From contig JACPXH010000007.1 in NCBI GenBank assembly GCA_016196625.1, positions 86,461-150,460 of the forward strand: 64,000 nt of DNA. Reading direction: 5' to 3'. The notes beneath the pieces are model-generated. The model searched no databases and was not told the origin of the DNA. It worked only from the letters and a program-made list of their open reading frames with translations. The number at the start of each line of letters is the position of its first letter. Within the stretch, counting starts at the first letter, position 1. Positions 19,576 through 44,494 of the stretch are shown here, piece after piece. A program made the position numbers and the translations under genes. The DNA comes from Candidatus Parcubacteria bacterium. Lineage in GTDB: Bacteria > Patescibacteriota > Minisyncoccia > JACPXH01.

Positions 19576-22500
19576 TCAGTTTTCTCCAACCACCACCGCT
19601 TCATCGGCGAGGAGCTTTAAATTCCCATCTTTATCTGACAGTCGCCCCTTCGCCAAAATGATGTTTTCTTCGTGCCAGACGTTCGGTGTCCTTTCTAAAA
19701 CCGATGGGAAGACGAGCACCTCGATTTGCTGGGTGAGATCTTGCACGCCCACGAAGAGCATGGGTGAGCCGCTCTTCGTGATCTTCTTGGCGATGTTAGA
19801 TACAATACCGCCGATTTTGACTGTTTGTCCAATGCGTAACCTGGTCAATTGATTGATGGGCGTTGTCACTTTTGACAGTCGGGCCGAATAATCGGTCAGC
19901 GGGTGTTCGGTCACGTACATGCCCAAGAGTTCCCGTTCCCACGCGAGGCGCTCTTTTTTAGCAGCGGGCGGCGCGTCAACGAGGCGGACTTTGGTCAAAG
20001 CGACATCGGGGGCATTCGCAAACAGGCTCGTTTGACCATTGGCCAGGCTACTTCGTTGGCTGCGGGCAAAGTTTTGGATGGTTTCGAGATTCGCGAGCAA
20101 TTGGTTGCGCTCGCCGAGTGAATCCATAGCCCCGGACTTGATCAGCGATTCGAGTGATTTGCGGTTGAGATCTCGTTGCGCGGTGCGCTCGACAAAATCA
20201 GTGATATCGCGATATCCGCCCTGCGCGGTGCGCTCGGCGATGATCGCTTCCACCACGTTCACGCCGACATTTTTGATGGCCGTGAGGCCAAATCTAACCG
20301 CCCCGCCCACCACCGAGAAGTGCACGCTTGATTCATTCACATCCGGCGGCAGTACCGCGAGCCCCATGTCACGCGCTTCTTGCACCAGGAACGCGGTGCG
20401 GTCAATGTCGCCTTCTTCCGAGGTCATGAGCGCGGCGATGAACTCTGACGGATAGTGCGCTTTGAGGTACGCTGTCCAGTAGCCAATAAGGGCGTAGCAG
20501 GCGGCGTGGGAACGGTTGAAGCCGTAGCGGGCAAAGGGTTCAAAATAGTCAAAGATTTGCTCGGCCAGTTTTTTGTCGATGGCGTTGGCGACGCAGCCTT
20601 CCACAAAACGTTTCCGTTCGTTGAGTAGCAGCTCTTTAATCTTTTTGCCGATGGCTTTACGCAGTGTGTCGGCTTGGCCGGGCGTGTAGCCGGCGAGGGC
20701 CTTGGCAATTTCCATGATCTGTTCTTGGTAGATGGCAATGCCGTAAGTGTTTTTCAAAATGGGCTCGAGCTTGGGGTGCCAATAGGAGATTTTTTTACGG
20801 CCATGCTTGCGGTCGATGAACTCCGGGATAAATTCCATGGGTCCGGGTCGGAAGAGTGAAACCATGGCGATAATGTCTTCGAGTTCGGTGGGTTTCAGAT
20901 CTTTGAGGTGGCGTTTCATGCCGTTGCTGTTGTGAACGACGAAGCTATTCGCAACGAAATTGTTGGCTGGAGCCCGCATCGCGATATCGTACGTTTGTGC
21001 TCTGCCCGCTGGCTTAATCTCCTTGACGGTCGTCCACATGAAGCCTCGAGGTATGGCCGGACATTCCCACCGAATCAGTTGTTTGTACTGGAGGGCGAGT
21101 TCAGCAAACTTTGTTGCGCTTATGAGAACGAAATTGTGTTGGGGGTACTGGGAGGTAAAGAGGCATATCTTCTCTTGGTCCAGCTCGTGCAGCCAGCCCT
21201 TGATTTCGTAGAATGTATTGTCGTGCGGAGTATAAAAGTCGGGCGTGTACGACATGAGCGTGCCGTCCGCGCGACGCAGCTCGAAGGTCTTCGGCTCGTA
21301 TTCGTACGCAGCGCGGTGGAGTTTTAGGATCCGTGCAAAGTCGGCCTCCCAGTTCGAGCGAACATAGTGGCCGAGATCTGGTCGGTATCCTCCTTTGCGG
21401 TGCGGTGCTCGCTGCCCATACATTGGATTGCCGGTTCCGCGGAACCTCTCGAAGGATTGACGTCGTAGCGCCTCCGCCCGCTCCTTTACGTGGAGCATCT
21501 CGTGCGTCCTCCCGGTCAACGCGCGGGAAATTTTTCTGCCGGTCTCACGGAGGGTGTCGTTGGTCTTTTTCGTCAGTCTGGTGTTCCACGGTTGCCCGCC
21601 ATTCGCAAAAAATATTTTCTGGGCCACGGAAATTCTTTGCCGTGAAAACGTCTTCGCGGGGTTCCGATAGACGCACGCTGAACAGCGGTAGCAGTAGGTA
21701 CTCTTTCCGTGTTTCTGTCCATTGATTTGGACGCCGCACCGTTGACAGGTATTCCAGATATCGTATTTCGCCCGCGTCTTCACCAATACATTGTCCCCCG
21801 GTTCAATGTCTGCGAGTTTTTTCCATCCATCGCTCGTGAGAAACATGTGTTCTGTGGTCGCTTTGATGTACCGGCGATCTTCGGTAATGAGTGCTGATAC
21901 GTTCTTCTCTCCGCGTGTGGCAACGGCAAGGATATCGTTATTGTGCACCGTCCCGGTGTCGAGGTAGACGGAACGCAAACTCTTCCTGTTAGATTTTTGG
22001 TACAGTTGTTCGATCGTCAGGTTCGAGACGGTAGTTTCTCCTGATATGCATTCGAACTGGAACACTCCGGTGGTCCGTCCTTCTTGAAAAAGCCGGTACG
22101 TCGCAGGATCGTCGAGGGGGATATCCTCGATGGTGAGATGTGCCTGCGGCTCGATGGCGTTCAATACGTGTTCGATGAGCGTAAGGTTTTTGAGCCCGAG
22201 GAAGTCAATTTTGAGCAGGCCCAAATCTTCGATCGAATGCATCTCATATTGCGTCACGATTGTAAGGTCGTCCTGACTGGCCCGCTGCAGGGGCACGTAC
22301 TCGGGGAGGGCGTCTTTGGTAATGACCACGCCACAGGCGTGGGTGGATGCATGGCGGGCAACGCCCTCAAGTTTGCGCGCGGCGTCTAAGAGGTGTTTGG
22401 CGTCTTCATCGTTTTCGTAGAGTTCCTTTAACTCCGGGACGACCGCGAGCGCTTGCTCGAGCTTCAACTGGAAGGGAACGAGCTTGGCGATTTGGTCGCA

Positions 22501-23859
22501 GAAACTGTAGGGCATACCGAGGGCGCGACCAGTATCCCTGACGGCAGCTCGGGCGGCCATGGTGCCGAACGTGATGATCTGCGCCACGTGGTCGCGGCCA
22601 TAGCGTTCCGCCACGTACTGCAGCACTTCGTTGCGACGATGGTCGGCAAAATCAAGGTCAATGTCGGGCATGGAAATGCGGTCGGGGTTGAGGAAGCGCT
22701 CGAAGAGCAAGCCGTACTTGAGCGGATCGATATCGGTGATGTTGAGCAGGTATGAAACGATGCTGCCGGCGGCTGACCCACGTCCCGGGCCCACCACAAT
22801 GCCCCGCGCTTTGGCCCAGTTCACGAAGTCTTGGACAATGAGGAAATACGAACCGAAGGCGGTTTTGGTGATTACCGCTAGCTCGTATTCAAGACGTTTT
22901 AATACCGCAGCGCTCACCCCACCATCGCCGTAGCGCTTGGGCAAACCGCGGTAGCACAGTTCTTTGAGAAAGGAATCCGCGCTGTAACCCGTCGGCACTT
23001 CAAAGTGGGGCAGGATGGGCGTGCCCAATTTGAGTTTCCAATCGCACTGTTCGGCAATTTTGACGGTGTTCGCGAGCGCTTCCGGCACATCCGCGAACGC
23101 TTGCGCAATTAGCTGCGGGTCTTTAAGCGAGAAGTCGTCGCCTTTGATGGTGAGGCGTTCTTCGTCATCAATCCGGGTGCCCGTTTGCACGGCCATCAAA
23201 ATGTCCTGGGCGTCGGCGTCTTCGGGCCGCACATAGTGGGTGTCATTGGTGACGACGAGGGGCAAATCAAGTTTTTTTGAAAATTGCTTTAAGGCTTCGT
23301 TCACTTTGGTCTGTTCGGGAATGTTGGGGTGGTGCTGGAGTTCGAGATAGAAATGCTCTTGGCCAAAAATGTTTACGTATTCATGGCAGAGCGTCTCGGC
23401 CCGTTCGAGGTTGCCGGCGAGAATGGCGCGGGGAATCTCCCCGGACAAACATGACGAAAACCCGATGAGTCCCTCGCTGAAGGCGGCGAGTGTGGCTTTG
23501 TCCACACGGGGTTTGTAGTAAAAGCCTTCGAGATGGGCGCGGGTTACGAGCCTGACGAGATTGCGGTAGCCGGTTTCGTTTTTGGCGATGACAAGCAGGT
23601 GGTAGCGGTTTTCTTTGATTCCGGCCGACCGGTCAGCCATCGCGCCGTCAGTGAGGTACAGTTCGCAGCCGATAAGTGGTTTGATGTCGCGCTTCTTCGC
23701 CTTTTGGTAGAATTCGACGGCACCATAGAGCACGCCGTGGTCGGTCAGGGCGAGCGCATCCATGCCGAGTTCTTTGGCTCGGTCGAGGAGTTCGTCAATC
23801 TTGCCCAGTCCATCGAGCAAGCTGTAATGAGAATGTACGTGTAGATGTACAAACTTCAT
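19576..23859 (-). CDS. dnaE: DNA polymerase III alpha subunit interrupted by one intein
   Basis: PHP domain MKFVHLHVHSHYSLLDG; GVFQFE|[intein]|SNGMKRHLKDLKPTELEDIIAMVSLFRPGP. Confidence 0.95.
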   Translation of the reverse strand: MKFVHLHVHSHYSLLDGLGKIDELLDRAKELGMDALALTDHGVLYGAVEFYQKAKKRDIKPLIGCELYLTDGAMADRSAGIKENRYHLLVIAKNETGYRNLVRLVTRAHLEGFYYKPRVDKATLAAFSEGLIGFSSCLSGEIPRAILAGNLERAETLCHEYVNIFGQEHFYLELQHHPNIPEQTKVNEALKQFSKKLDLPLVVTNDTHYVRPEDADAQDILMAVQTGTRIDDEERLTIKGDDFSLKDPQLIAQAFADVPEALANTVKIAEQCDWKLKLGTPILPHFEVPTGYSADSFLKELCYRGLPKRYGDGGVSAAVLKRLEYELAVITKTAFGSYFLIVQDFVNWAKARGIVVGPGRGSAAGSIVSYLLNITDIDPLKYGLLFERFLNPDRISMPDIDLDFADHRRNEVLQYVAERYGRDHVAQIITFGTMAARAAVRDTGRALGMPYSFCDQIAKLVPFQLKLEQALAVVPELKELYENDEDAKHLLDAARKLEGVARHASTHACGVVITKDALPEYVPLQRASQDDLTIVTQYEMHSIEDLGLLKIDFLGLKNLTLIEHVLNAIEPQAHLTIEDIPLDDPATYRLFQEGRTTGVFQFECISGETTVSNLTIEQLYQKSNRKSLRSVYLDTGTVHNNDILAVATRGEKNVSALITEDRRYIKATTEHMFLTSDGWKKLADIEPGDNVLVKTRAKYDIWNTCQRCGVQINGQKHGKSTYCYRCSACVYRNPAKTFSRQRISVAQKIFFANGGQPWNTRLTKKTNDTLRETGRKISRALTGRTHEMLHVKERAEALRRQSFERFRGTGNPMYGQRAPHRKGGYRPDLGHYVRSNWEADFARILKLHRAAYEYEPKTFELRRADGTLMSYTPDFYTPHDNTFYEIKGWLHELDQEKICLFTSQYPQHNFVLISATKFAELALQYKQLIRWECPAIPRGFMWTTVKEIKPAGRAQTYDIAMRAPANNFVANSFVVHNSNGMKRHLKDLKPTELEDIIAMVSLFRPGPMEFIPEFIDRKHGRKKISYWHPKLEPILKNTYGIAIYQEQIMEIAKALAGYTPGQADTLRKAIGKKIKELLLNERKRFVEGCVANAIDKKLAEQIFDYFEPFARYGFNRSHAACYALIGYWTAYLKAHYPSEFIAALMTSEEGDIDRTAFLVQEARDMGLAVLPPDVNESSVHFSVVGGAVRFGLTAIKNVGVNVVEAIIAERTAQGGYRDITDFVERTAQRDLNRKSLESLIKSGAMDSLGERNQLLANLETIQNFARSQRSSLANGQTSLFANAPDVALTKVRLVDAPPAAKKERLAWERELLGMYVTEHPLTDYSARLSKVTTPINQLTRLRIGQTVKIGGIVSNIAKKITKSGSPMLFVGVQDLTQQIEVLVFPSVLERTPNVWHEENIILAKGRLSDKDGNLKLLADEAVVVGEN
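20929..22050 (-). mobile_element. dnaE intein (374 aa) with non-LAGLIDADG nuclease-like insert (Cys4 zinc ribbon + PD-(D/E)xK-like TPDFY...EIKGW)
   Basis: starts CISGETTV after GVFQFE; ends VVHN|S; CQRCG...CYRCSAC; no LAGLIDADG motifs. Confidence 0.8.
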
Positions 23860-26491: not shown

Positions 26492-26740
26492 ATGGGAACC
26501 CCCACCCAAAAACACACCAAATCCCGTCGCGACAAGCGGCGGTTCCAATTGCGCCTTTCGCATCAGCAGCTCTCGACCTGTCCCAAGTGCGGCCGGCCGA
26601 GGCTTGGGCACACGGCATGTTTATACTGTGGCACGTACAAGGGTCGGGAGGTGGTGGACGTTTTGAAACGGCTGTCGAAGAAAGAGAAAAAGGCCCGGGC
26701 AAAGGAGCTGGCGGCGAAAGAACCGGCAGCTGCGAAATAA
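26492..26740 (+). CDS. rpmF: 50S ribosomal protein L32
   Basis: MGTPTQKHTKSRRDKRR...CPKCG...CLYCGTYKG. Confidence 0.85.
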   Translation: MGTPTQKHTKSRRDKRRFQLRLSHQQLSTCPKCGRPRLGHTACLYCGTYKGREVVDVLKRLSKKEKKARAKELAAKEPAAAK

Positions 26741-26925
26741 CAAATGCCAAAGCTCAAATGTCAAATCAAGTTCAAAATGACGCCGCGCGTCATCCTGAGC
26801 GCAGCGAAGGATCTTGAGATCCTTCGGTCGTCCGCCGACTGGCGGACTCCCCCAGGATGACAATCGAGTTGTCACTTTGAGTTTTGGGTTTGATTTAAAA
26901 TTTGGATTTTGACATTTGACATTCC
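26741..26925. repeat. palindromic AT-rich repeat, family A copy (MITE-like), rpmF-nusB spacer
   Basis: caaatgccaaagctcaaatgtcaaatcaag...gtcactttgagttttgggtttgattt...gacatttgacattcc with nested GC hairpins in centre. Confidence 0.7.
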
Positions 26926-26929
26926 CGTT

Positions 26930-27421
26930 ATGGCTTCCCGTCACCTCTCGCGATCAATCGCCATGCAGTCCCTCTATGAGTGGGATTTTGCCGGCATGGA
27001 CGATGCGAAGCTTGAAGAGGTCGTAAATCGCAATATTCAGGAGTTTGCGCCGGGGCTTGATGATGCAAGCTTCATTTGGGAGTTGGTCAAAAATACGCTT
27101 CAGCGTCGGGCCACCATTGATAAAATCATCGAGAAGACCGCACCCGAATGGCCCATTGACCAAATTACCATGGTGGATCGTAACATCCTTCGTCTTGGCA
27201 TCTACGAACTGCTCTACGGCAATCGGGCCGAGGTGCCGCCGAAGGTGGCGATAAACGAGGCCATTGAGATCGCCAAAACTTTCGGCGGCGAATCTTCCGG
27301 CAAGTTTGTGAATGGAGTCCTCGGCACCATCTATCGCGAGATCGGAGAGCCGGATAAAGATGCGCCGAGGCGCGGAGAAAAGAAGGTAGCCTCTCGCGCC
27401 GAAGAGAAAACCCCGCAATAA
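26930..27421 (+). CDS. nusB: transcription antitermination protein NusB
   Basis: [14 protein letters not shown]...[23 protein letters not shown]...[22 protein letters not shown]; start chosen after the repeat. Confidence 0.85.
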
Positions 27422-27424
27422 GTA

Positions 27425-27585
27425 CCACATAATACTCAACCCTAATCCGAAGCTCGAAATCCGAAACAATATCCAAATTTCAAAACCCAATACTCAAACC
27501 GCGATTTGAATCATTGGAGCTTGTGATTTGGGATTTATTCGAAATTCGGTATTTGAGTTTCTGGTTTGAGAGCTGGGTCGGTTAA
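27425..27585. repeat. divergent AT-rich partially palindromic repeat (related to family A), nusB-rnc spacer
   Basis: ccgaaacaatatccaaatttcaaaacccaatactcaaacc...ggtatttgagtttctggtttgagag. Confidence 0.4.
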
Positions 27586-27590
27586 TCCTC

Positions 27591-28280
27591 GTGGCTTTTC
27601 TCGAGAAGTTGGAACCAAAACTTGGCGTCGCTTTTCAGAATCAAGACCTGCTTCAGCAGGCCTTTGTGCATCGTTCGTACCTGAACGAAAATCCGGGTTT
27701 CCGTCTCGACCAGAACGAAAGGCTGGAATTTTTGGGTGACGCAGTTTTGGAGCTTGTCGTAACCGAAGCGCTCTACGCCCAATTTCCGGAAAAACCGGAG
27801 GGGGAACTCACCAACCTGCGGGCGGCGTTGGTCAACGCCAATATGCTGGCTGAAGTGGCGCGCGGTCTTGATTTCAACGACCACTTGCTTCTGTCGCGCG
27901 GCGAGGCCAAGGACGAGGGTCGCGCTCGACAGTACATCCTGGCGAATGCCTTTGAAGCGGTAATGGGCGCCTTATATCTTGATCAAGGGTACGAGGCGGC
28001 GCGCGGTTTCGTGGAGCGCGTGCTACTCACGCACTTGGCGCACATCGTGGAAAAGCAGCTCTACAAAGATCCCAAGAGCCGTTTCCAAGAGGCCGCACAG
28101 GAGAAGGCCGGCATTACCCCGACGTACGAAGTCTTAGAGGAATGGGGTCCGGATCATGCCAAGCATTTCGTGGTGGGCGTGTTTATCGGCCGGGAGCTGG
28201 TTGCGAAAGGCGATGGGCCGTCGAAACAGGCAGGCGAAGAAGCGGCGGCGAGGGCGGGGCTGGAAGTGAAGGGGTGGTAG
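27591..28280 (+). CDS. rnc: ribonuclease III (GTG start)
   Basis: ERLEFLGDAVLELVV signature, C-terminal dsRBD. Confidence 0.9.
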   Translation: MAFLEKLEPKLGVAFQNQDLLQQAFVHRSYLNENPGFRLDQNERLEFLGDAVLELVVTEALYAQFPEKPEGELTNLRAALVNANMLAEVARGLDFNDHLLLSRGEAKDEGRARQYILANAFEAVMGALYLDQGYEAARGFVERVLLTHLAHIVEKQLYKDPKSRFQEAAQEKAGITPTYEVLEEWGPDHAKHFVVGVFIGRELVAKGDGPSKQAGEEAAARAGLEVKGW

Positions 28281-28282
28281 GC

Positions 28283-28410
28283 CGCTTCGCGGAAGTCCAA
28301 ATACCAAAGCTCAAATGACAAATCAAATCCAAAGCCCAAAGCCGTTTTTGACATTTGGATTTTGAGCTTGATTTGAACTTTGGATTTTGTCATTTGGGTT
28401 TTTGGGCAGA
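28283..28410. repeat. palindromic repeat family A copy, rnc-rpsP spacer
   Basis: gccgcttcgcggaagtccaaataccaaagctcaaatgacaaatcaaatccaaag...ctttggattttgtcatttgggtttttgg. Confidence 0.7.
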
Positions 28411-28455
28411 GATTTGATTTCTTCCAAGAGTTTCTGTACCATCGACACAGTTGCT

Positions 28456-29900: not shown

Positions 29901-30632
29901 ATGAGATTCGACATCATTACAATATTCCCAAAAGCTTTCGATTCGTACTTGAGCGAATCAATCATCAAGCGCGCCCGAGAAAAGAAGCTCGTGGATATTC
30001 GGATTCACAACCTCCGCGATTTTACCACAGACAAACATCAAAAAGTTGACGGTCGGCCTTATGGCGGCGGGCCGGGGATGGTGTTTATGGTGGAGCCAAT
30101 CTATCGGGCACTCAAAGCGTTGAAAGCCGCGCCGCCGCGCACGACCAAGAGTAAACGCGAGACGCGCGTGGTCATGTTGGCGCCCGAAGGCAAGCAGCTC
30201 ACTCAGCGCGAGGCAGAACGGTTGAGTAAGTATAAACGGATCGTGCTCATCTGCGGCCGCTACGAGGGGTTTGATTCACGGGTGGATACGCTCGTGGATG
30301 AGAAAATCTCCATTGGTCCTTATGTGCTTGCCGGCGGAGAATTGCCCGCGATGGTGCTGTTAGAAACCGTGGCGCGCAACATCCCGGGCGTGGTGGGGCA
30401 TCCTGAAGCGCTCAAAGAAGAGACGTTTTCAAAGAACCTTGAATACGTTGAGTACCCGCAGTACACGCGGCCGGAAGTGTTTAGGCTGGGGTCGAAGAAG
30501 CTGCGGGTTCCGAAGGTGCTCAAGTCCGGAGACCACGCCGCCATCAGGGCGTGGCGTTCGAAGTGGACGCGGAGGTCTTGCCCCGTGACCACAACGAGGA
30601 ATGGCCGCCTCGGCGGCAGATGGATGAGGTAG
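29901..30632 (+). CDS. trmD: tRNA (guanine37-N1)-methyltransferase; annotated 3' end reads into an inserted element
   Basis: MRFDIITIFPKAF, GGGPGMV, SIGPYVLAGGELPA; last ~18 codons lie inside the 30581-30713 element; putative ancestral stop TGA overlaps TTGACA. Confidence 0.85.
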   Translation: MRFDIITIFPKAFDSYLSESIIKRAREKKLVDIRIHNLRDFTTDKHQKVDGRPYGGGPGMVFMVEPIYRALKALKAAPPRTTKSKRETRVVMLAPEGKQLTQREAERLSKYKRIVLICGRYEGFDSRVDTLVDEKISIGPYVLAGGELPAMVLLETVARNIPGVVGHPEALKEETFSKNLEYVEYPQYTRPEVFRLGSKKLRVPKVLKSGDHAAIRAWRSKWTRRSCPVTTTRNGRLGGRWMR

Positions 30633-30713
30633 TTCGGTGCCTCATCTCTAGTGTTCTGGGAATACGCCTTCGGGAACAGCCGAGCGTTCAAGTTTCCTCG
30701 TTGTGGTACGGGG
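30581..30713 (+). mobile_element. 133-bp MITE-like/structured element copy 1: ~20-bp terminal inverted repeats, flanked by (t)cttg direct repeat, abutting -35 of rRNA promoter
   Basis: left ccccgtgaccacaacgaggaa, right ttcctcgttgtggtacgggg; internal hairpins gccgcctcggcggc and gatgagg-tagttcggtg-cctcatc; second copy at 53491-53622. Confidence 0.55.
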
Positions 30714-30714
30714 C

Positions 30715-30742
30715 TTGACACGTTTGCTGCGGCGACTACAAT
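30715..30742 (+). promoter_or_regulatory. sigma70 promoter TTGACA-16-TACAAT for 16S rRNA
   Basis: consensus -35 directly 3' of the inserted element; ~330-nt leader to 16S. Confidence 0.5.
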
Positions 30743-31748
30743 AGAGCGTGGAGATCGCCTATGTAGATTATCTCGGACAACCTTGGCCTCAGAGCGTATC
30801 GACGTTCGGGCACCGTACGACCGCGAAGGCGTCTAGCCGAGATCCACAAGTAAATAGTTCGGTGAATCTCGAAGATGGACTTCTTCGCGGTTGTATTTTC
30901 CGAGACGCTGACTGACGCGGACAATTGAGATTGCTTCGCTGTGCTCGCAATGACGAATGCAGCCGGTGTCCCTTGAAAATTGAATAGGTAAGGTAAGTAA
31001 AAATCCAGTTATTCCTTGTTGTCCCGATCTATGGGTGTTCGGCAGCGCGCTTGGCGCGATGGCCGGACATCTTTTGAGAGTTTGATCCTAGCTCAGGATG
31101 AACGCTGGCGGCGTGGATAAGCAATGCAAGTCGTGCGAGGCCTTTTCTGAAGGAGTTGCGATTACATCAAGACGACAGATGAAATGGTCGAGCGGCGAAC
31201 GGCTTAGTAACACGTAGGAATCTGCCCCGGAGTCGGGCATAACTCGTCGAAAGGCGGGCTAATACCCGATGGTATCAGCATTGCAATTTTGATCTTTAGA
31301 ACCTTCTAGTGTCGACAAGCGCCTAGATGCTGGAAGTTGCGGCGAAGGGAAGGGAGCGCAGACTCCCTTGGTGGCGCGCACAAGTACCCCTTGACCGGTT
31401 AACCCGGGGGCCCTTCGCCTACTAATTTCTAGAGTTCAAAATTGCGATGCTGATTAAAGATGCAAATCACTCCGGGAGGAGCCTGCGGGCTATCAGCTTG
31501 TTGGCGGGGTAACGGCCCACCAAGGCTATGACGGCTAGGGGGTGTGAGAGCATGGCCCCCAAGATGGGTACTGAGACACGGACCTGACACCTACGGGTGG
31601 CTGCAGGCGAGAATATTCGGCAATGGGCGAAAGCCTGACCGAGCGACGCCGCGTGAAGGATGAAGCCCTGCGGGGTGTAAACTTCTTTTGACCGGGAGGA
31701 AGCCGCAAGGCTGACTGTACCGGTAGAATAAGGGGCTGCTAACCTCGT

Positions 31749-32101
31749 GCCAGCCCCGCACCAAACATTTGGTGGCGGGGCGACCAATGTTAGCAATACA
31801 AAACGAATCTGGTATTACCGAAAGCGCGACCTGGAGTCGCAAGGCTCCTTGAATAACTCGGCTCATATGCTGGGAACTCTGTGAGTGGCTGCAATCGTTC
31901 AACGATGCTCCAGAGCAATCAGCAGGGAAGTCGCCCCGCCCTTGGCGAGGTTGACCCCTCAGAGACTGATCCCTATCGGCGAAGTGCCGAGACGGGTGAG
32001 AACGGATGCGTGTGTATCTGTTCAGACGCCGAGCTCCGCCAATTGGCGGATGGTGGGATAGTCCATGTTCCGAAGCCAAATCCAAATGTTTTGGTAACGG
32101 G
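31749..32101 (+). mobile_element. 16S group I intron 1 (353 nt, ORF-less) near E. coli position ~516
   Basis: splits gtgccagcagc(a)gcggtaatac; contains ggctcatatgctggg and tcagagactgatc (R-like) blocks; ends with G. Confidence 0.65.
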
Positions 32102-32373
32102 GCCAGCAGCAGCGGTAATACGAGGGCCCCGAGCGTTATCCGGAATCACTGGGCGTAAAGAGTCTGTAGGGGGTCTGGTTAGTCGGGTGTGAAATTTCCG
32201 CGCTCAACGCGGAGCCCGCATCCGAAACGGCCAGACTCGAGGACGTGAGAGGCGAGTGGAATGCACGGTGTAGGGGTGAAATCCGTTGATATCGTGCAGA
32301 ACACCGAAGGCGAAGGCAGCTCGCTGGCGCGTTCCTGACCCTGAGAGACGAAAGCGTGGGGAGTGAATGGGAT

Positions 32374-33349
32374 CGGATTTGGTCCCCTCGTGCGGCGACG
32401 CACGAGCGCAAATCTGGCTATATGCTGGAACATCCGAGTATCTCACCGTACTGCGTTCAGGGCAGTAACAATCTGTGAGTGCGGATTATCAGCAGGAAAC
32501 CGTGGTAAAATGATACTATGGGATCCTCAGAGACTATACGCCGGATACCTCAAATGAATAAGGAACTCGCCATTCTGTTAGGACTTCTCTACACAGATGG
32601 TTGTGTTTCCCCAAAAGGACAAAGTTGGAGAATTTATTTCGCCGTAAAATCGCAAGTGTTAGTCAACCTTTTTCGGGATTGCATGGTAGATGTTTTCGCC
32701 CTCGAGTCTAATCGAGTGCGGATTGGCGTTACGCAAGATGGTTTAACGAGAGCCATCGTGAACTCGAAAGAGGTGGGCAACTGGTTGGTAGGCAGGTTTG
32801 GCACATTCCGAACGTTAAAGTTCGCGAATGGCCGATTGCCTCCAGCAAGACTGCCGGTGTCGCTGTTGAAAAGCACGCGACATGTAGCAGATTTCTTGCG
32901 AATTGCGTTTAGCTGTGATGGAGGCGTGAGTTTCTATTCTGCAAAACGCGACGGCAGAAATGGCGGCACCCGATGGTTAATTCGAACAGTCTTTCTCGCT
33001 TGCACACATCCGCAGTTGCGGAGAGATTATCTGAAGTTACTTTCTCAACTTGGCATCCGAGTACGAGAAGTCGCCAAAGATGGCAAGCTGAAGATGGAAA
33101 CAGAACGAGATATTCGTCTGTTTCAAGAGCGGATCGGTTTTACCGCCGGTGTTCGAGTAACGGGCAATTCCAAATTCTGGAATGGCTACGAAAAAAATGA
33201 AGTCTTGCGACTTCTGATCGCGTCGTATGGCCGGCCATCAAAGATCTACCAACTGCCTAAATTTAATGAGGTAATGATATAGTCCGAACTTCATGGCGAC
33301 ATGAAGAGACAAGTAAGACTGGGTAAATCTTGTCCGTTGTAACAACAAG
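32374..33349 (+). mobile_element. 16S group I intron 2 (976 nt) encoding LAGLIDADG endonuclease, at ~E. coli 788/789
   Basis: exon1 ends ...gggaU; exon2 tagatacccc; ggctatatgctggaacatccg, tcagagactatacgcc (R element); terminal G. Confidence 0.7.
32518..33282 (+). CDS. LAGLIDADG homing endonuclease (double-motif) inside 16S intron 2
   Basis: LAILLGLLYTDGCVS and FLRIAFSCDGGVS. Confidence 0.8.
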   Translation: MGSSETIRRIPQMNKELAILLGLLYTDGCVSPKGQSWRIYFAVKSQVLVNLFRDCMVDVFALESNRVRIGVTQDGLTRAIVNSKEVGNWLVGRFGTFRTLKFANGRLPPARLPVSLLKSTRHVADFLRIAFSCDGGVSFYSAKRDGRNGGTRWLIRTVFLACTHPQLRRDYLKLLSQLGIRVREVAKDGKLKMETERDIRLFQERIGFTAGVRVTGNSKFWNGYEKNEVLRLLIASYGRPSKIYQLPKFNEVMI

Positions 33350-33450
33350 TAGATACCCCAGTAATCCACGCCCTAAACGATGAGGACTTGTTGTGTAGAG
33401 TATCGACCCTCTACGTGGCGAAGCTAACGCGTTAAGTCCTCCGCCTGGGA

Positions 33451-33482
<32 letters not shown>

Positions 33483-33493
33483 AGACGGGAGTT

Positions 33494-33528
<35 letters not shown>

Positions 33529-33624
33529 GTAAGCGAGGAACCTTACCAGGGCTTGACATGTTCGAGTAAGGCCGCCGAAAGGTGGTCCCTCCCACAAGGA
33601 CCCGAACACAGGTGCTGCATGGCT

Positions 33625-34429
33625 ACATCCGGATACGGATGGATGGCCGGTCCGGTGGCAACATCGGATAACAATAACCAGCCCAAAACGGTGGAGCCCT
33701 CCTGGTTTTCGGAGTAAAATGGAAGCCAGTGGGTAATACCGTGGGAAGCAAGTTTATATTCAAGACAGCCGAAGACTACTACGCACTGGGTCTTTGGCTG
33801 GCGGATGGGTACTGGCGTTCAAGCTCAGTCGGCTTAACTTCGGTTGACTCTCGATTGATAGAGCGGTTTGTTCGGTTTTTACGGCGGGCGGCTCCGAGCC
33901 ATCCGCTGAAGTACCGAACGTATCACCCACTCGATGGTCGAGGGAAACGTAGACGTGTGGCGACACAAGTGTACGTAAACAGTCGGGCGTTGACCCGAAT
34001 GTTCACTGCCACGAAAACCGGAGTATTGTTCGTCCCATCGCGAAACGTTCCTGCGTATTTGGCAGGGCGGATAGATGGTGATGGGCACGTAGACGCCAAA
34101 CATCGATCGGGCATTCGGATCGCGTATGGGAACGCGTTCGATGCTCGGAGGGATCGTCGGTTGTTCGGCGCAGCCAATGTGAGCTTGTACCGGTATTCAG
34201 CTGCGAGGACGATGGTCCTTTACTTGAGGAAGCATTATCGAGAGCGCATCGAACCCGCGGTTCGAAAATTCTCGATGAAACTTGCCCCGTAGAGACTGAA
34301 TTCCGAATCAAAGCGGAATGAGAATTGTCGATCTTCGACGATTCAGACGGTTGGCATCCAGCCCCAGTTTTTCAAACTGGAGCTGGATGAAGGTATAGTC
34401 CATGCTCGTGGAAACACGGGAATATCATG
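33625..34429 (+). mobile_element. 16S group I intron 3 (805 nt) encoding LAGLIDADG endonuclease, after GCATGGCU (~E. coli 1057)
   Basis: exon junction gcatggct|gtcgtcagc; gaaggtatagtccatgc (S element); ORF begins inside conserved ataccgtgggaag block. Confidence 0.7.
33729..34292 (+). CDS. LAGLIDADG homing endonuclease inside 16S intron 3
   Basis: YALGLWLADGYW and YLAGRIDGDGHVD. Confidence 0.8.
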   Translation: MGNTVGSKFIFKTAEDYYALGLWLADGYWRSSSVGLTSVDSRLIERFVRFLRRAAPSHPLKYRTYHPLDGRGKRRRVATQVYVNSRALTRMFTATKTGVLFVPSRNVPAYLAGRIDGDGHVDAKHRSGIRIAYGNAFDARRDRRLFGAANVSLYRYSAARTMVLYLRKHYRERIEPAVRKFSMKLAP

Positions 34430-34528
34430 GTCGTCAGCTTGTGGCGTGAGTTGCTCCGTTCAGTCGGGTAACAAGCGCAACCCCTATGTGCTGTTACAGG
34501 TGTCAGCGCAAACTGCCTGCTTCAAGCA

Positions 34529-34564
<36 letters not shown>

Positions 34565-35144
34565 CTTTGATGCCCTGGGCGACACACGTGCTACAATGGC
34601 CGGTACAATGGGACGCCAACCCGTAAGGGGGAGCAAATCCCACCAAAACCGGTCTCAGTCCGGATTGAGGTCTGCAACCCGACCTCATGAAGCTGGAATC
34701 GCTAGTAATCGCGGATCAGCCACGCCGCGGTGAATACGTTCCCGAACTTTGTACTCACCGCCCGTCAGGCCAGTGAAGGCGGTAATGCCGGAAATCTGGG
34801 TTTGTCCCGGATGAAGGCAGGATCGCTGACAAGGGCTAAGTCGTAACAAGGCATCGGTAGCGGAAGCTGTCGATGGATCATCTCCTTTCTAGGGAGTTCT
34901 TACCTTCTACGGTTAAGAACCGCTAGTAAGGTCAAGTGGTCGGTGCTGCGTTTGCTGCCACAAGCACGAATGCGGCGGGAGTTGGCCGATGTCCTCAACC
35001 ATCGGCTGCTCGGCCCCGAAGCGTCATTCGGGCGGTCGGGACAACGAGGAAAAACTGGAATAGCAAACCGCGCGCCCTCTTGAGGGGGCGCGCGGTTGTG
35101 TTTTATGATGCGAGGGCGCTTGGATTGCGGCGTGCAGCTAAAGC

Positions 35145-35216
35145 GGGCGCGTAGTTCATTGGTAGAACGCCTTTCTGATAAAAAGGAGGTAGTAGGTTCG
35201 ATTCCTACCGCGCCCA
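35145..35216 (+). tRNA. tRNA-Ile (anticodon GAT), no encoded CCA
   Basis: gggcgcg acceptor / cgcgccc; anticodon loop ctGATaa; T-loop gtagg-ttcgatt-cctac. Confidence 0.9.
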
Positions 35217-35257
35217 CAGCAGATCTATTGCTGCATATTCGGACAGGAAAGTCGCTT

Positions 35258-36226
35258 ATGATAAAAGAGAAGATTAATAAGCCCAACATCCGAGATACTA
35301 AGCCGGGATACTCGGAGGGATATTATGATATTTTTGAACATTTGGAGGATTATGCTGCTAAGATTTTTGCCGCTGCAGACATTCATCCGCAAGAGACGAA
35401 AGTAATGGAGGGTGAAACTGGAGTTATCCTTAACGTATTTGATGGGCAACAGCGAGCCATCGTCAAGATTAATCCTTTCCATGGCGATCTCCTGACCAGC
35501 GACTACTTTTATAACAAGCTCGAGGGGTCTGGTGTCCCAGTTCCAAGCGTCTTATTTTTTGACGATTCAAGGCAAGTGATACCCTACGACTTCCAAGTTT
35601 TAGAGTATTTAGAGGGTGTAGATATACGGAGCATTCCGGCAAAACTTCACAGACAGGCGGGCACGCTCGTTGGCGAAGCGCTGCAGAAAATTCATAGCAT
35701 CAACGTTGAAGGATTCGGCTGGCCTTTATCAGGAGGCGGATGGGGCGCCACATCATGGCTGGATGCATTGCGAAAGAATTACTTTGATAGTTCTTTGGCA
35801 AAGAAACACGAAGTTTTTTCTACTGAAGAGATACGGCAGATAGAACGGATCACCTTCTTTAATGAAAAGCTCAATAGTATTGCACCTCATTTAATACATT
35901 CTGACGTAGGTCATGGGAATAGCTTATACAGGCTTGAAGACAATCAGTTGTTCCTCGTAGGATTCATAGATCCAGGCGGCATTATTGGGGGCGATCCGAT
36001 GTTTGATGTGCCGCTGAGCGTTGACGCTGAAGATGATTTTGAGAAAGGGATAGGGGAGGTATACACAGGGCGGAGATCTCTTTCTCCGGAAGAAGAGTAT
36101 CGTCTCAACCACCTCAACTTAGCCAGACGCTTTTGGTCAACATGCTGGCATTATGCGACCGGGAGAGACCATAAGCCGGTCAAAGACAAAACCGTTGTAC
36201 TACTCAAGAATCTGACCACGAGGTAG
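35258..36226 (+). CDS. aminoglycoside/choline-kinase-like phosphotransferase (APH family), low-GC gene directly 3' of tRNA-Ile
   Basis: Brenner motif LIHSDVGHGN, FIDPGG...GDPMFD; ORF-track N-terminal extension overlaps the tRNA and is rejected. Confidence 0.7.
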   Translation: MIKEKINKPNIRDTKPGYSEGYYDIFEHLEDYAAKIFAAADIHPQETKVMEGETGVILNVFDGQQRAIVKINPFHGDLLTSDYFYNKLEGSGVPVPSVLFFDDSRQVIPYDFQVLEYLEGVDIRSIPAKLHRQAGTLVGEALQKIHSINVEGFGWPLSGGGWGATSWLDALRKNYFDSSLAKKHEVFSTEEIRQIERITFFNEKLNSIAPHLIHSDVGHGNSLYRLEDNQLFLVGFIDPGGIIGGDPMFDVPLSVDAEDDFEKGIGEVYTGRRSLSPEEEYRLNHLNLARRFWSTCWHYATGRDHKPVKDKTVVLLKNLTTR

Positions 36227-36927
36227 TGGGTTTGATTCATATCGTGTCCACACCCATGAATAAATCCTGGCTCATTGCAATCGGAATCGTCGCGGCAATC
36301 GGCGTTGCTGTTTTCTTCGTCTCGATGCGGCGCGCGCCAGAACCGCCGGCGCCACCGTCGGGGCAACCGACGAATTCGCAGCCGTCTAACCAAACTCCCG
36401 CACCCGTGGACGCCGAAAGCGAAAAACCGCCGCGCGCATTCCCCGGCGTTCTTCCCGCCGAAGAAGTAGAAAACAAAATCGCGGTCATCAAAACGCCCAA
36501 GGGCGAAATTCGTTTTGAGCTTCTCGCTGCAGAGGCGCCTAAGACGACAAGCAACTTTGTGTATCTTGCAAAACAGGGCTACTTCAACGGCCTGAATTTC
36601 CATCGCGTGGAGTCGTGGGTGATTCAAGGCGGGGATCCGAACTGTGGTTCGACAGGCTCACCACCTTCGGCAGCTGGGCCGTGCGGCACCGGTGGGCCGG
36701 GTTATCGGTTTGAAGATGAGCCGGTGCGCTTGGAATACAAAACCGGCATCGTCGCCATGGCCAACGCCGGGTCCAACACTAACGGCTCGCAGTTTTTCAT
36801 CTTGAAACAGGACACGTCGCTCCCGCCCAACTACACTATTTTTGGGCGTGTGACGGCCGGGCAAGACGTAGTGGTAAAGATCGCTGCGGGAGACACGATG
36901 GAGAAAGTCGAGATTCTGTCGAAGTAA
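36226..36927 (+). CDS. membrane-anchored cyclophilin-type peptidyl-prolyl isomerase (start may be 36256)
   Basis: TM + Pro-rich linker, then FHRVESWVIQGGDP...IVAMANAGSNTNGSQFFI. Confidence 0.8.
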   Translation: MGLIHIVSTPMNKSWLIAIGIVAAIGVAVFFVSMRRAPEPPAPPSGQPTNSQPSNQTPAPVDAESEKPPRAFPGVLPAEEVENKIAVIKTPKGEIRFELLAAEAPKTTSNFVYLAKQGYFNGLNFHRVESWVIQGGDPNCGSTGSPPSAAGPCGTGGPGYRFEDEPVRLEYKTGIVAMANAGSNTNGSQFFILKQDTSLPPNYTIFGRVTAGQDVVVKIAAGDTMEKVEILSK

Positions 36928-36943
36928 TCCTGTATCATCAGGT

Positions 36944-37495
36944 ATGCGCCGACCCACGAAAATTCTGCTGACAACCCAGATGATCGCGGTGGGTGCCGCG
37001 GGGATGCTAGTGCCGATTTATGCGATCTACGTGGAAAAGATTGGCGGAGACATTCTCGCTGCGGCAGGCGCGTGGACGGTGTTTTCAATCGTGAGTGGGG
37101 CGCTCATGATGTTATTCGGTCGGCTCACCGATCGGGTGCGGGAACCAGAGTATTTCATCGTTGCCGGGTTCTTTGCGGCCGCGGTTGGTTACGTGGGGTA
37201 TCTCTTCGTGCAGAGCCCCACGCATCTGTTCATCGTGCAGATGGTGCTTGGCGTGTCGGTCGCGCTTATGACGCCCGCGCATGACGCGCTCTACACCGAG
37301 CACCTCGACGGCGGGCGGTTTGCGTCGGAGTGGGGGTTTTGGGAAGGCATGTGGAACATTACCGAGGCTGCGGCCGCGTTGGCTGGTGGGCTTGTGGTCG
37401 TATGGTTTGGGTTCAAAGCGCTGTTTATGATTATGGCGCTCTTGGCGTTTTCGACTGGTGTCTACGTGTGTGTCTTGCCGCGCCGGGTGCTGTGA
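36944..37495 (+). CDS. MFS-transporter C-terminal-half-like membrane protein (possible gene fragment)
   Basis: 6 predicted TM segments; only 183 aa. Confidence 0.45.
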   Translation: MRRPTKILLTTQMIAVGAAGMLVPIYAIYVEKIGGDILAAAGAWTVFSIVSGALMMLFGRLTDRVREPEYFIVAGFFAAAVGYVGYLFVQSPTHLFIVQMVLGVSVALMTPAHDALYTEHLDGGRFASEWGFWEGMWNITEAAAALAGGLVVVWFGFKALFMIMALLAFSTGVYVCVLPRRVL

Positions 37496-37585
37496 CCGAT
37501 TTGGCGCGTCAAGAAAAGAGAACGCCCGTCCCTCGATACACTAGGGACGGGCGTTGAATCTTGCGGAAGAAGGAACAGCGGGCGG

Positions 37586-38182
37586 CTAGACAGCGGCGAG
37601 AGATAGCGCCTTGAGCGCCGTTGGGACGATGATCCGGTGGCTCGGCACCAGATCATCCGGCAGGAGATCGGCCGGGTAAAAGGCACCGTTGGCCGGCGTG
37701 CCCTCGATGCGCGCAAGGTGAATGAGACAGCAGAACACTCCGCGCGTCGGTTCGGGGATGAGGCGGACGTCCACGAGCTGCGGCCAGCCGATGAATTTGG
37801 CCGGTGCAAGCTCCTTCGTCTCGAGCCGCCTGAACGCGGCCTCGAGATCCTCGCGCGCGATCCGCGCCTGAATGTCGTCGCCCAGTGGGATAGCGTCGGG
37901 CGCCTGGATGACGGTCCCGGGCGAGTGCAGCAATCCCGGAAATGCTTCGCTCGGCTCTTCCTCCTTCGTGGGCCGGCGCATGAGCAGCACTTGCAGGTCG
38001 CCGTGCGCCGGGCCGAAGCGATAGATCACAGTCTCGACCGCCGCTTTCGGCAGGAGCAGCGAGAGCGCCTCGAAGGCGTCCGGCTGCCACGGTTGGGTTA
38101 CGCCTAACCGCTTGAGCCAGTGCGTGCAGGTATCCCAGTCATCCTTGGTCGCGAGCGGCAGAACCCGTACCTGTTCGGTCAT
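37586..38182 (-). CDS. hypothetical protein, paralog A
   Basis: shares TQPW..FEAL...RRxT....HSPGT(V/I) pattern with adjacent ORF. Confidence 0.5.
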   Translation of the reverse strand: MTEQVRVLPLATKDDWDTCTHWLKRLGVTQPWQPDAFEALSLLLPKAAVETVIYRFGPAHGDLQVLLMRRPTKEEEPSEAFPGLLHSPGTVIQAPDAIPLGDDIQARIAREDLEAAFRRLETKELAPAKFIGWPQLVDVRLIPEPTRGVFCCLIHLARIEGTPANGAFYPADLLPDDLVPSHRIIVPTALKALSLAAV

Positions 38183-38212
38183 CCCATCCCCCCTTGCGTG
38201 GGCGTTGCTTGC

Positions 38213-38770
38213 TTACCGGCCAGCGAATCGATTCAGGCGGGGTAGTCCCGTGAGCGCGATTTCAATCAGCGAACGGTGGTGATCCATGAGTGGTTCTGGC
38301 AACGGTTTGTCGACCGGAAAAAATTGTCCGTGGTTCGGCATACCGATAACGTAGGCTATGTGGATCAGGCGTAGCTCGGTGCCGCGTCGGATCCGGTTCA
38401 GCTCAAGTTGTGTAAAGATCGGTTTGCTGATAGTGGCTGGCGCGAGTTCACGTTCCATCAACCGTTTTAGCGCATCGGTGAGCGTCTTGTCGGTGGCCCG
38501 CAATATTGTGCCGGGTGAGTGCCACTCGTTGGGCCAGTAGATGTCATTCGTCGCTCGGCGGGCCAAGAATACGCACCAGCCCTCGGGACGGTACTGGAAG
38601 CACACCACTTCGTAGGCCGCGCATACTACGCACCGTGCCAGAGCCTCGAACAGCTCGAGCGTCCAAGGCTGGGTGTGCTCCAATTTGCCGCACAGGCGAA
38701 TAAAGGTTCCGACTTCACGACGGGTCAGTTGGCCTTCTCGTAATAGCTGCGTCCCCATTGCCCTTGCCAT
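38213..38770 (-). CDS. hypothetical protein, paralog B
   Basis: tandem paralog of 37586-38182. Confidence 0.5.
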   Translation of the reverse strand: MARAMGTQLLREGQLTRREVGTFIRLCGKLEHTQPWTLELFEALARCVVCAAYEVVCFQYRPEGWCVFLARRATNDIYWPNEWHSPGTILRATDKTLTDALKRLMERELAPATISKPIFTQLELNRIRRGTELRLIHIAYVIGMPNHGQFFPVDKPLPEPLMDHHRSLIEIALTGLPRLNRFAGR

Positions 38771-38963
38771 CCGTTCCCTCCCTCCGTATGGGTGGCTGTT
38801 TGTCGCGCTGCCAACGCTGGTCTATTTTATATACCGGATCTATTGGATGAAGTCAACTGGTTGGTGTTATGTCGTCGGCGGCTCCGCCCGGGCCGCTGAT
38901 TCCTTTTTGTGCTTGGTGGATGTTCTTTTCAATCCGTACGCGCTGTGGTATACATAAAGCGGC

Positions 38964-39878
38964 ATGAAGTATCTCATCACCGGCGGCCCGAGGGGTTGGA
39001 TTGCCCAAAAGTTCGCGGCGTTTTTGAGTTCGCCGGGCGGCGAAGCCGAGCTGTCGGCCGTTAACATTGCGGACGCGACGGCAATCGAGGCCGAGCTCGA
39101 CCGGGCGAAGCCAGAGGTCCTCATCAATACTGCCGGCAAAACCGGCGGACCAACTGTGAGTCCCTCGGGCCAACCCGGGCGCAACATTGATTGGTGCGAA
39201 GACCACAAAGTTGAGACGCTCACCTCGAACGTGGTTGGGCCGGTGGAACTCGTGAAAGCCTGCAAGGCACGGAACATCAAGCTCGTGCACCTTTCAAGCG
39301 GCTGCATCTTTCAGGGTCGGGGGCACCTCGCGAGTGGTTTCCGTGAGGACGACGCGGTCGCCCCGCCGAGTTTTTACTCATGGACCAAATACTGGGCCGA
39401 TCAGTATTTGATGCAAGCCTGGCCAGAAGGCACGCTCATTTTGCGGCTGCGCATGCCCACGGACGCCGAACCCGGGCCGCGCAACCTCATCACCAAGCTT
39501 GCGGGTTATCCCAAGATCATTGACGTGGAGAATTCACTCACCGTGATCCCCGATCTTTTGGCGGCAACGAAGCAGCTGATTGCGCAGGGTGCGGTGGGGA
39601 TTTACCACGTGACCAATCCGGGGTCGGTCACGCATCGCGAGATTATGGGGCTCTATCAGAAGTTGGTTGATCCCGGGCACACCTTCGAGTTCATTTCAGA
39701 GGCAGAGCTCTACAGCCTTGGGCTTGCGAGTACCGGCAGATCCAACTGCATTTTAAACGTGGACAAACTTTTACGCGCGGGCGTGCAGATGCCGCCCATC
39801 AAGGAACGGATCCGTGAAGTAATGGCCGAGTATGCGGCGAATCTCAAACGCAGTCAGAGCGTTCCGGCTCAAGCGTAG
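38964..39878 (+). CDS. NAD(P)-dependent epimerase/reductase of extended SDR family (dTDP-4-dehydrorhamnose reductase-like)
   Basis: MKYLITGGPRGWIAQ Rossmann start; SSGCIF...YSWTKYWAD catalytic Y..K. Confidence 0.75.
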   Translation: MKYLITGGPRGWIAQKFAAFLSSPGGEAELSAVNIADATAIEAELDRAKPEVLINTAGKTGGPTVSPSGQPGRNIDWCEDHKVETLTSNVVGPVELVKACKARNIKLVHLSSGCIFQGRGHLASGFREDDAVAPPSFYSWTKYWADQYLMQAWPEGTLILRLRMPTDAEPGPRNLITKLAGYPKIIDVENSLTVIPDLLAATKQLIAQGAVGIYHVTNPGSVTHREIMGLYQKLVDPGHTFEFISEAELYSLGLASTGRSNCILNVDKLLRAGVQMPPIKERIREVMAEYAANLKRSQSVPAQA

Positions 39879-39971
39879 CCACGGTTCTGTGGTTTTGTGC
39901 ACGAAAGCGCCACCTTGCTCAAGGTGGTACTTCTGTTTTTGGCGTGAGCGTGGTATAACCTTGATTTAAGG

Positions 39972-40018
39972 GCTATAGCTTAGTGGCAGAGCACCCGCTT
40001 TGTTCACCCCGTACCAAA
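39972..40018 (+). pseudogene. truncated tRNA-Ala-like 5' half
   Basis: gggctatagcttagtggcagagcacccgctttg resembles first 33 nt of downstream tRNA-Ala; no T-arm/acceptor 3' strand. Confidence 0.45.
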
Positions 40019-40022
40019 ACTT

Positions 40023-40094
40023 GGGCCAGTAGTTTAGTGGTAGAACACCGCTTTTGCACAGCGGAGATCGCGGGTTCGATTCCCGCCTGGTCCA
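40023..40094 (+). tRNA. tRNA-Ala (anticodon TGC)
   Basis: gggccag/ctggtcc acceptor, anticodon loop ttTGCac, T-loop gcggg-ttcgatt-cccgc. Confidence 0.9.
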
Positions 40095-40137
40095 CAATTC
40101 AAAAAAGCATCACAGATATCCCTAATCTTATATATTC

Positions 40138-41441: not shown

Positions 41442-41704
41442 CCCAAGCTGTGGATAACGTTCGCGCAGCAAGCGATTGAGTGTGATAGAATTTGACTAGC
41501 CAGACTTTTCAATGGTTGATGGCCCGGCGCGGTTTTCTGCTCCAACGCATGCGGCAGCGCCGGAGAGCTACCCACCATTTAACAACTTAACCGTGATTGT
41601 CTTTCCTGCGCTGACTGGTCGATGTCAGCGTGTACGCATGGCTCCGCCATGCGGCAGGGGGAAGCAGAAGGCGGGGCTTTCCGCCCCGCTAAAAGGAATT
41701 TCCT

Positions 41705-42403: not shown

Positions 42404-42485
42404 CAGTCGGCAAGGGATATCGGGTTGTCGGCCGGCGGGGCGAGCGCCTCGCCGGCTTTGCTTTTTTCATGTGCAAAACAGGGTA

Positions 42486-43285: not shown

Positions 43286-43330
43286 CATTCCCTTAGTAGC
43301 GGCGAGCGAACCGGGAAAAGCCCAAACCAG

Positions 43331-43694: not shown

Positions 43695-43731
<37 letters not shown>

Positions 43732-44450: not shown

Positions 44451-44494
<44 letters not shown>

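Follow-up and report, generated by a model that had tools for sequence, protein, structure and literature searches.

The question raised by this locus is whether a palindromic sequence lying directly upstream of two promoters in a Candidatus Parcubacteria (CPR) MAG is a mobile insertion and, if so, of what kind and with what preference for the place in which it sits. The stretch of DNA analysed, 64 kb long and called the window here, had been described in a sequence-only reading as carrying an element of about 133 bp at 30581-30713, with near-identical inverted ends of about 20 bp, and an identically organised copy at the rpoBC promoter at 53491-53622. Both are confirmed, with arms of 21 and 20 nt, and the second copy has the same arms and, but for one base, the same flanks. 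Copy 1 is located between trmD (29901-30632) and the 16S rRNA gene (31075-34886), and copy 2 between rodA (52383-53498) and rpoB; these are the two copies present in the window. Their parts are as follows.

30581-30713, + strand: copy 1 of the element, 133 nt, non-coding
30581-30601, + strand: left terminal inverted repeat of copy 1, 21 nt with a bulged G inside, identical to the left arm of copy 2
30623-30646, + strand: internal hairpin of copy 1, GATGAGG-TAGTTCGGTG-CCTCATC, with the TAG stop of the extended trmD inside it (30630-30632)
30694-30713, + strand: right terminal inverted repeat of copy 1, 20 nt
53491-53622, + strand: copy 2 of the element, 132 nt
53491-53511, + strand: left terminal inverted repeat of copy 2, which gives rodA its TGA stop (53496-53498)
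53603-53622, + strand: right terminal inverted repeat of copy 2

In both copies the left arm reads CCCCGTGACCACAACGAGGAA (21 nt) and the right arm TTCCTCGTTGTGGTACGGGG (20 nt), and the arms pair as a 20-bp inverted repeat that is complementary save for one bulged G; the boundary sequence may also be written CCCCGT(G)ACCACAACGAGGAA. The arm 21-mer occurs exactly twice in the window, compared with no occurrence in 100 shuffles. Between the two copies the arms are identical at 41 of 41 positions and the interior at 61 of 93 (66%; Fisher p = 1.4e-6), and the arms are under much stronger constraint than the interior, whether the divergence of the latter predates or follows insertion. The fourfold-site identity of the window to relatives with empty sites, 0.61-0.78, lies too near the 0.66 of the interior to date this divergence, and the 34% difference may consequently be older or younger than the insertions. 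The sole long conserved block of the interior is GGTAGTTCGGTGC, the loop of the copy 1 internal hairpin, which differs from its counterpart in copy 2 by one U-A to C-G double change. As RNA, copy 1 folds at -74.4 kcal/mol (z -8.8) and copy 2 at -65.0 kcal/mol (z -5.2). The two copies share no open frame in a common register, and a protein-coding element was rejected because the reading frames differ between them. A tRNA or tmRNA was rejected as well, since ARAGORN makes no call on the element. An Rfam 15 covariance-model search with both copies gave no match even at E <= 10, and a retron, an integron attC site or a Y-RNA-like RNA was rejected on the grounds that there is no such match and no nearby reverse transcriptase or integrase; these RNA candidates are also countered by the empty sites described next, which show the element to be inserted DNA.

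Orthologous loci were fetched via homologues of TrmD and RodA. The sequence-only reading had proposed a search for empty sites as the check on an insertion, and had held that relatives always containing the sequence would point to an ancestral regulatory structure instead. Ten empty sites were found, five at the 16S promoter (L014, L019, L020, L021, L024) and five at the rpoB promoter (L016, L017/L018, L022, L023, L025), in relatives ranging from 89% down to 64% protein identity; the window strain is the only one with filled sites. The 16S site of L019 (TrmD 89% identical) reads …agaaggTCTTGACAcggttcctggagcgacTACAAT, in codons …AGA AGG TCT TGA CAcggttcctggagcgacTACAAT…, and that of L020 (TrmD 88%) reads …agagggTCTTGACAcgtttgctggagcgacTACAAT, in codons …GGG TCT TGA CAcgtttgctggagcgacTACAAT…, both running on into the common leader GGAGATTGCCTATGTAG. 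In these two the TGA stop of trmD lies inside TCTTGACA, that is, within the -35 box, with TACAAT downstream, which matches the pre-insertion sequence that had been predicted, with TTGA supplying the stop. The 16S-promoter sites of L014, L021 and L024 (TrmD 84-77%) are likewise empty. At the rpoB promoter, L023 (RodA ~89%) reads GGAGGGTCTTGACAGATTTTCCTGGCAGAATAGCAT, also given as GGAGGGTCTTGACAGATTTT…, and aligns to the window with ~95% identity on either side of a clean gap of 137 nt, the combined length of the 132-nt element and TCTTG. Removing the element and one repeat from the window gives exactly the sequence found in the relatives, and TCTTG is single-copy at the empty sites of L019, L020, L016 and L023 and doubled, as TCTTG…(T)CTTG, at the filled sites. 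The polarity of the insertion, its exact boundaries and the duplication can be read directly from these comparisons. As all relatives down to 64-77% protein identity are empty, a gain in the window lineage is the parsimonious reading, and repeated precise loss is by far the less parsimonious alternative to a lineage-specific insertion. An independent Logan read assembly of the same strain (L013), whose contig ends inside the element, has the same filled junction, and an assembly artefact is thus excluded.

Between trmD and the 16S promoter, several of the fetched loci have a small ORF that resembles a zinc ribbon (CxxC…CxxC; L015 1812-1877, L021 829-1194, L024 1112-1260), which is absent from the window, L019, L020 and L014. 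The candidate of a different element at the same site in L015 was rejected, its sequence being this small zinc-ribbon gene, also present in L021 and L024.

The junctions and the promoters that they adjoin are listed below.

30576-30580, + strand: left target repeat of copy 1, TCTTG, the final bases of the ancestral trmD frame, with a single TCTTG in L019 and L020
30714-30717, + strand: right target repeat of copy 1, CTTG, which rebuilds the -35 hexamer
30715-30742, + strand: 16S rRNA promoter, TTGACA-N16-TACAAT, 11/12 consensus match
53486-53490, + strand: left target repeat of copy 2, TCTTG, with a single TCTTG in L016 and L023
53623-53627, + strand: right target repeat of copy 2, TCTTG
53625-53652, + strand: rpoB(C) promoter, TTGACA-N16-TAGGAT

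Both copies are inserted in the same orientation and at the same point, between the G and the A of TTGACA, and each directly abuts an intact TTGACA-N16-TAnnAT promoter. The hexamers are TTGACA at 30715-30720 and TACAAT at 30737-30742 for 16S, and TTGACA at 53625-53630 and TAGGAT at 53647-53652 for rpoB. Copy 1 is framed by GGAGGTCTTG on its left and CTTGACA on its right, and copy 2 by GGAGGGTCTTG and TCTTGACA. The earlier proposal that the tcttg and cttg at the ends of the element are a target-site duplication is supported by the single TCTTG at the empty sites, with the correction that the flanking repeat of copy 1 comes to 5+4 nt and that of copy 2 to 5+5 nt. In the relatives, the 16S promoter hexamers are kept in L014, L019, L020, L021 and L024, with differing spacers, and orthologues of the rpoB promoter and leader are present in L017, L022, L023 and L025. 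The overlap of an upstream gene's stop codon with the -35 hexamer of the next promoter is found for trmD, whose TGA lies in TCTTGACA (L019 1436-1448, L020 846-858), and for rodA in L022 (1408-1418), whose TGA lies in TATTGACA. Such stops show extreme compaction of genes and promoters in this clade.

The insertions have altered the ends of both upstream genes.

29901-30632, + strand: trmD, with an 18-codon extension into copy 1 and the tail …TRRS-CPVTTTRNGRLGGRWMR
52383-53498, + strand: rodA, whose stop is the TGA that the left arm of copy 2 supplies

The extension of trmD arises because the insertion removed its TGA stop. That the element lengthens trmD by about 18 codons had been proposed from the sequence and is corroborated by the homologues: 9 of the 9 nearest terminate at the pre-insertion position, and among the 120 nearest the extension is found in the window only. 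In the window RodA ends in …EGL-AP in place of the ancestral 16-residue tail (…EGL-DRFSWQNSIEAVGH in L023); without the element the window would encode the tail that RodA has in L023, …EGLDRFSWQNSIEAVGH. The 16 residues lost are non-conserved. The element accounts in this way for two oddities of annotation, the 18-residue tail of TrmD and the truncated tail of RodA.

Other features of the surroundings of the two copies were observed. In the rpoB 5' leader a second window-only insertion of ~130 nt (53811-53943) forms a long, imperfectly paired hairpin on folding (CCCCGCCAGC…GCTGGACCGCGGGG; -54.9 kcal/mol, z = -2.0). L016, L023 and L017 do not have it, and in L022 its place is taken by a different insert, ~170 nt long. 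This may be a further palindromic element of small size, or the site may be an indel hotspot. In L016, the closest relative, GGTCTTGACA is kept (1020-1030; compare window 53631-53707), but 77 nt that are present in L023 and L017 are missing, which take in the spacer and -10 box of the promoter together with ~55 nt at the beginning of the rpoB leader; from its sequence, rpoB in L016 would have no obvious promoter of its own. The reading frame of RpoB encodes its conserved N-terminus (28 residues) ahead of the first canonical start, a TTG at 54097 (window 53974-54097); no ATG, GTG or TTG precedes this N-terminus, only CTG at 54046, ATT at 54052 and ATC at 54064. The situation is the same in L016 (1090-1180) and L023 (3414), where the gene is called from ATC, and the start is ATG in L022 and L025 and TTG in L017. 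These sequences suggest a non-canonical start, or some other unexplained initiation mechanism, for rpoB.

The rRNA genes between the two copies (31075-49888) are unusually arranged. The 16S gene spans 3.8 kb and the 23S gene ~7 kb, with several group I introns that hold LAGLIDADG ORFs at the following positions.

32518-33282: LAGLIDADG ORF in an rRNA intron
33729-34292: LAGLIDADG ORF in an rRNA intron
46782-47453: LAGLIDADG ORF in an rRNA intron
49054-49533: LAGLIDADG ORF in an rRNA intron

The 16S and 23S genes lie ~8 kb apart, separated by tRNA-Ile, tRNA-Ala and ~9 protein genes (among them kinase-like, cyclophilin, an MFS fragment, an epimerase, two methyltransferases and mechanosensitive-channel-like), and the 23S gene has its own perfect promoter at 42486. 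Elsewhere in the window, a 1427-aa ORF (19576-23859, - strand) has an apparent counterpart in L014, a 1431-aa DnaE gene with an intein-splicing domain on record.

Based on its ends, its size and its polymorphism, the element is probably a non-autonomous transposable element of the MITE type, 132-133 bp long with 20/21-bp terminal inverted repeats, that was inserted twice in this lineage. In the mechanism that we infer, both insertions struck RGG(G)TCTTG^ACA and each duplicated 4-5 bp, (T)CTTG, presumably through staggered cleavage. A transposase that recognises the arms and is encoded outside the window would mobilise the element in trans, as the contrast between arms and interior suggests. 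Since the first three bases of the hexamer are among those duplicated, GGGG(T)CTTGACA is restored at the promoter-proximal junction and the core promoter is preserved. Spacer, -10 box and hexamer are left untouched, and only the sequence upstream of the -35 box is displaced, by ~137 bp. In the empty alleles the DNA upstream of the -35 box consists of the end of trmD or rodA, whose stop codon falls within the hexamer (L019, L020, L022); as this is merely the end of a neighbouring gene, no specialised upstream promoter element has been lost. The rebuilt junction also resembles GGGT(A/C)TTGACA, an extended -35 motif that recurs in the clade (L014, L021, L022, L024 and the 23S promoter). To judge from these sequences, the insertion would be neutral or near-neutral for promoter strength and transcription.

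The sequence-only reading had gone further and called this an undescribed class of element, which is an overstatement. MITEs are by textbook definition small and non-coding, with terminal inverted repeats and a short flanking duplication (PMC10969869). The element is below ~500 bp and non-coding, it has terminal inverted repeats, its 4-5-bp duplication is single at empty sites, and it shows presence/absence polymorphism; as these are the defining features of MITEs, it is a new MITE-like family, of a known kind and not a new class. Bacterial MITEs and the CREE of Neisseria are, like the element, ~100-150 bp long and non-coding, with ~20-26-bp terminal inverted repeats, a conserved core and a short duplication; they are polymorphic in related genomes, lie adjacent to promoters, are co-transcribed with their neighbours and form a long double-stranded stem (PMC10969869, PMC2649163), which in CREE is a substrate of RNase III (PMC2649163). 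The element nevertheless has no known sequence similarity to described families, the ends of CREE included (no Rfam, plasmid or phage match). CREE duplicates TA and can create promoters with its own ends, whereas the element duplicates (T)CTTG and splits and rebuilds an existing -35 box; the 26-bp Correia inverted repeat with its TA duplication is accordingly not what is found here (features of CREE in part after PMC2649163). There are hundreds of copies of CREE, compared with two known for the element.

REP/REPIN sequences mobilised by RAYT also have two conserved inverted arms, a less conserved spacer and a hairpin of ~100 nt in intergenic DNA, but are high-copy and not known to have a target duplication or a fixed position relative to promoters, and no RAYT gene was found among the 30 window ORFs scanned with Pfam. 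The Rickettsia palindromic elements (RPE) are small palindromic insertions in reading frames that add residues to proteins. The 18-residue TrmD tail added by the element resembles their additions; RPE, however, are inserted in frame inside genes and translated throughout, whereas the TrmD extension is a by-product of a destroyed stop that overlapped a promoter. IS900 inserts between the ribosome-binding site and the start codon, and IS900 and the IS110 family exemplify orientation-specific insertion into a conserved expression signal. They differ from the element in being autonomous, in having, as far as is known, no terminal inverted repeats and in targeting translation signals and not transcription signals.

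The small number of known copies speaks against the MITE reading, as does the finding of no transposase or recombinase in the Pfam scans of 30 window ORFs, which identified LAGLIDADG homing endonucleases in the rRNA introns. Further copies were sought widely. Scans with exact 19-mers of the arms returned 0 viral-contig, 4 genome-contig and 8 metagenome-contig matches, in collections that appear to be without the source genome, and all 12 are chance matches without the right arm. A gapped pattern of the inner arms found nothing in viral contigs and all fetched loci. A six-frame pseudo-protein query with both copies against 5.8 billion proteins gave nothing at E <= 10, at low power, the arms coming to ~7 residues. 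Peptides derived from the arms were absent from 240 TrmD and RodA homologues save the window's own TrmD, and blastn of the element against plasmids and phages gave no match. A covariance model (R1) run on the window and the relatives' loci recovered only the two copies and the truncated copy of L013; neither by covariance model nor by pattern did the 25 fetched loci yield an additional copy. A literature search found no paper with a substantive description of MITEs in CPR genomes. A repeat family was also observed in the window (42813-45360 and 26734-28420), made up of a GC hairpin and A/T-rich 'AAATGTCAAA' runs (CCGATGCTTCGCATCGGGAATGTCAAATG…). Five copies follow one another at intervals of 460-790 nt over the beginning of the 23S region, intergenic DNA close to nusB, rnc and rpsP holds related ones, and the 16S gene of L014 contains a similar insert.

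The alternative that survives best, though it is unlikely, accepts a mobile element and proposes that it was moved not by a cut-and-paste DDE transposase but by an HUH (IS91-like or IS200/IS605-like) or IS110-like recombinase. On this view the enzyme would recognise CTTG as its target or crossover core, one of the two CTTG would be borne by the element with no true duplication, and the hairpin fold would serve as single-stranded substrate. IS91 targets 5'-CTTG and makes no duplication. The target of IS801 and IS1294 is identical to the tetranucleotide at which their terminus is cleaved, so that insertions seem flanked by identical tetranucleotides (PMC13181058). CTTG is found at both junctions of the element, where a duplication and an element-borne tetranucleotide look alike, and this possibility of a recombination core is a point against the MITE reading, together with the right-side repeat of 4 nt at copy 1 but 5 nt at copy 2. 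Also in favour of such a recombinase are the ~11 nt common to both targets (RGG(G)TCTTGACA), which is more specificity than most DDE elements have, and the very stable fold with subterminal hairpins. IS91 elements, however, are kilobase-sized, encode a Y2 HUH transposase and have distinct ori and ter ends with subterminal imperfect palindromes and no long terminal inverted repeat (PMC13181058), none of which is seen in the element. Its ends are instead perfect 20-bp terminal inverted repeats, a hallmark of DDE elements, and no HUH or DEDD gene was found among the 30 scanned window ORFs.

It is improbable that the element is now kept for a host function, either as a structured RNA at the 3' end of the transcripts of trmD and rodA (which might stabilise them, be cut by RNase III, or act as a terminator or insulator that shields the strong promoter downstream) or as a protein-binding palindrome upstream of the promoter, although such a function is compatible with a mobile origin and the two are not mutually exclusive. 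The arms have stayed perfectly conserved while fourfold sites diverged by 22-39% from the nearest empty-site relatives, and perfect arms around an interior of 34% divergence may reflect host-level selection on the arms, again a point against the MITE reading. Three interior pairs show double compensatory changes with the cUUCGg loop kept, the corresponding position upstream of the rRNA promoter is taken by shorter GC hairpins in L014 and L021, and the gene cluster includes a gene for RNase III 2.3 kb upstream. On the other side, the covariation is not significant with two sequences and is matched by 60 of 500 shuffles, no U-tract follows the stem, L019, L020 and L023 are without any hairpin there, and the sequence identity of the arms exceeds what a pure hairpin function needs. 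An ancestral regulatory structure lost in relatives, or an assembly artefact, is close to refuted: a site would look empty, too, after a precise deletion between its TCTTG repeats, and nothing more specific favours this reading, but the ten empty sites would need many independent precise losses at two loci, and the junction recurs in the independent read assembly.

With the element taken as a MITE-like insertion, there is still the matter of its landing site, for which targeting of -35 boxes had been proposed. Both copies do lie at the same base of -35 boxes; with two insertions, a real preference is not established by this and is best called suggestive. The window holds five canonical TTGACA-N16-18-TAnnnT promoters, and the two occupied ones are its only (T)CTTGACA promoters; the three that are unoccupied are preceded by GGA, GGG or GTA and include the perfect 23S promoter, GGTATTGACA…TATAAT. 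As 180 TCTTG and 667 CTTG sites were available in the window, chance does not account for two insertions at one and the same base of a -35 box. The window has two more TCTTGACA sites, which have no upstream GG and are both empty, one within thyX and the other without a properly spaced -10 box. The thyX-like ORF itself (10689-12323) is 544 aa long, roughly double the normal length, and contains two Thy1 stretches. Judged from the two occupied sites, a target of ~8-11 bp, RGG(G)TCTTGACA, fits the data. This sequence is also the clade's extended -35 consensus, and specificity for sequence and specificity for promoters are thus inseparable on two events; selection filtering insertions in a gene-dense genome may be a third reading of the pattern. 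The strong promoters of the clade (16S, 23S, rpoB) have a G-rich extension, GGGT(A/C)TTGACA, upstream of the -35 box (window 42482-42514, 30711-30720 and 53621-53630; also L014, L021, L022, L024), which may be a lineage-specific extended -35 element.

A more ambitious proposal, to be held tentatively and at rather low confidence, is that the family homes to promoters. Its mobilising enzyme would recognise the extended -35 region of housekeeping-sigma promoters (GGTCTTGACA), and the G-rich end of the element and the duplication would together rebuild the promoter. If this is true, the element would have a harmless and always accessible landing site in a gene-dense CPR genome in which stop codons overlap promoters, and recognition of a promoter hexamer would be a target specificity without a described precedent among MITEs or IS elements.

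These observations document a recently active small transposable element in a bacterium of the Candidate Phyla Radiation, whose genomes are small and gene-dense. The promoters entered by the two known insertions are of the strongest kind. If the pattern of insertion at the same nucleotide with sparing of the promoter holds genome-wide, it would constitute a natural case of promoter-directed insertion and would point to an enzyme with an 8-11-bp target. The filled and empty alleles form a matched pair for testing the role of the DNA upstream of the -35 box at CPR rRNA promoters.
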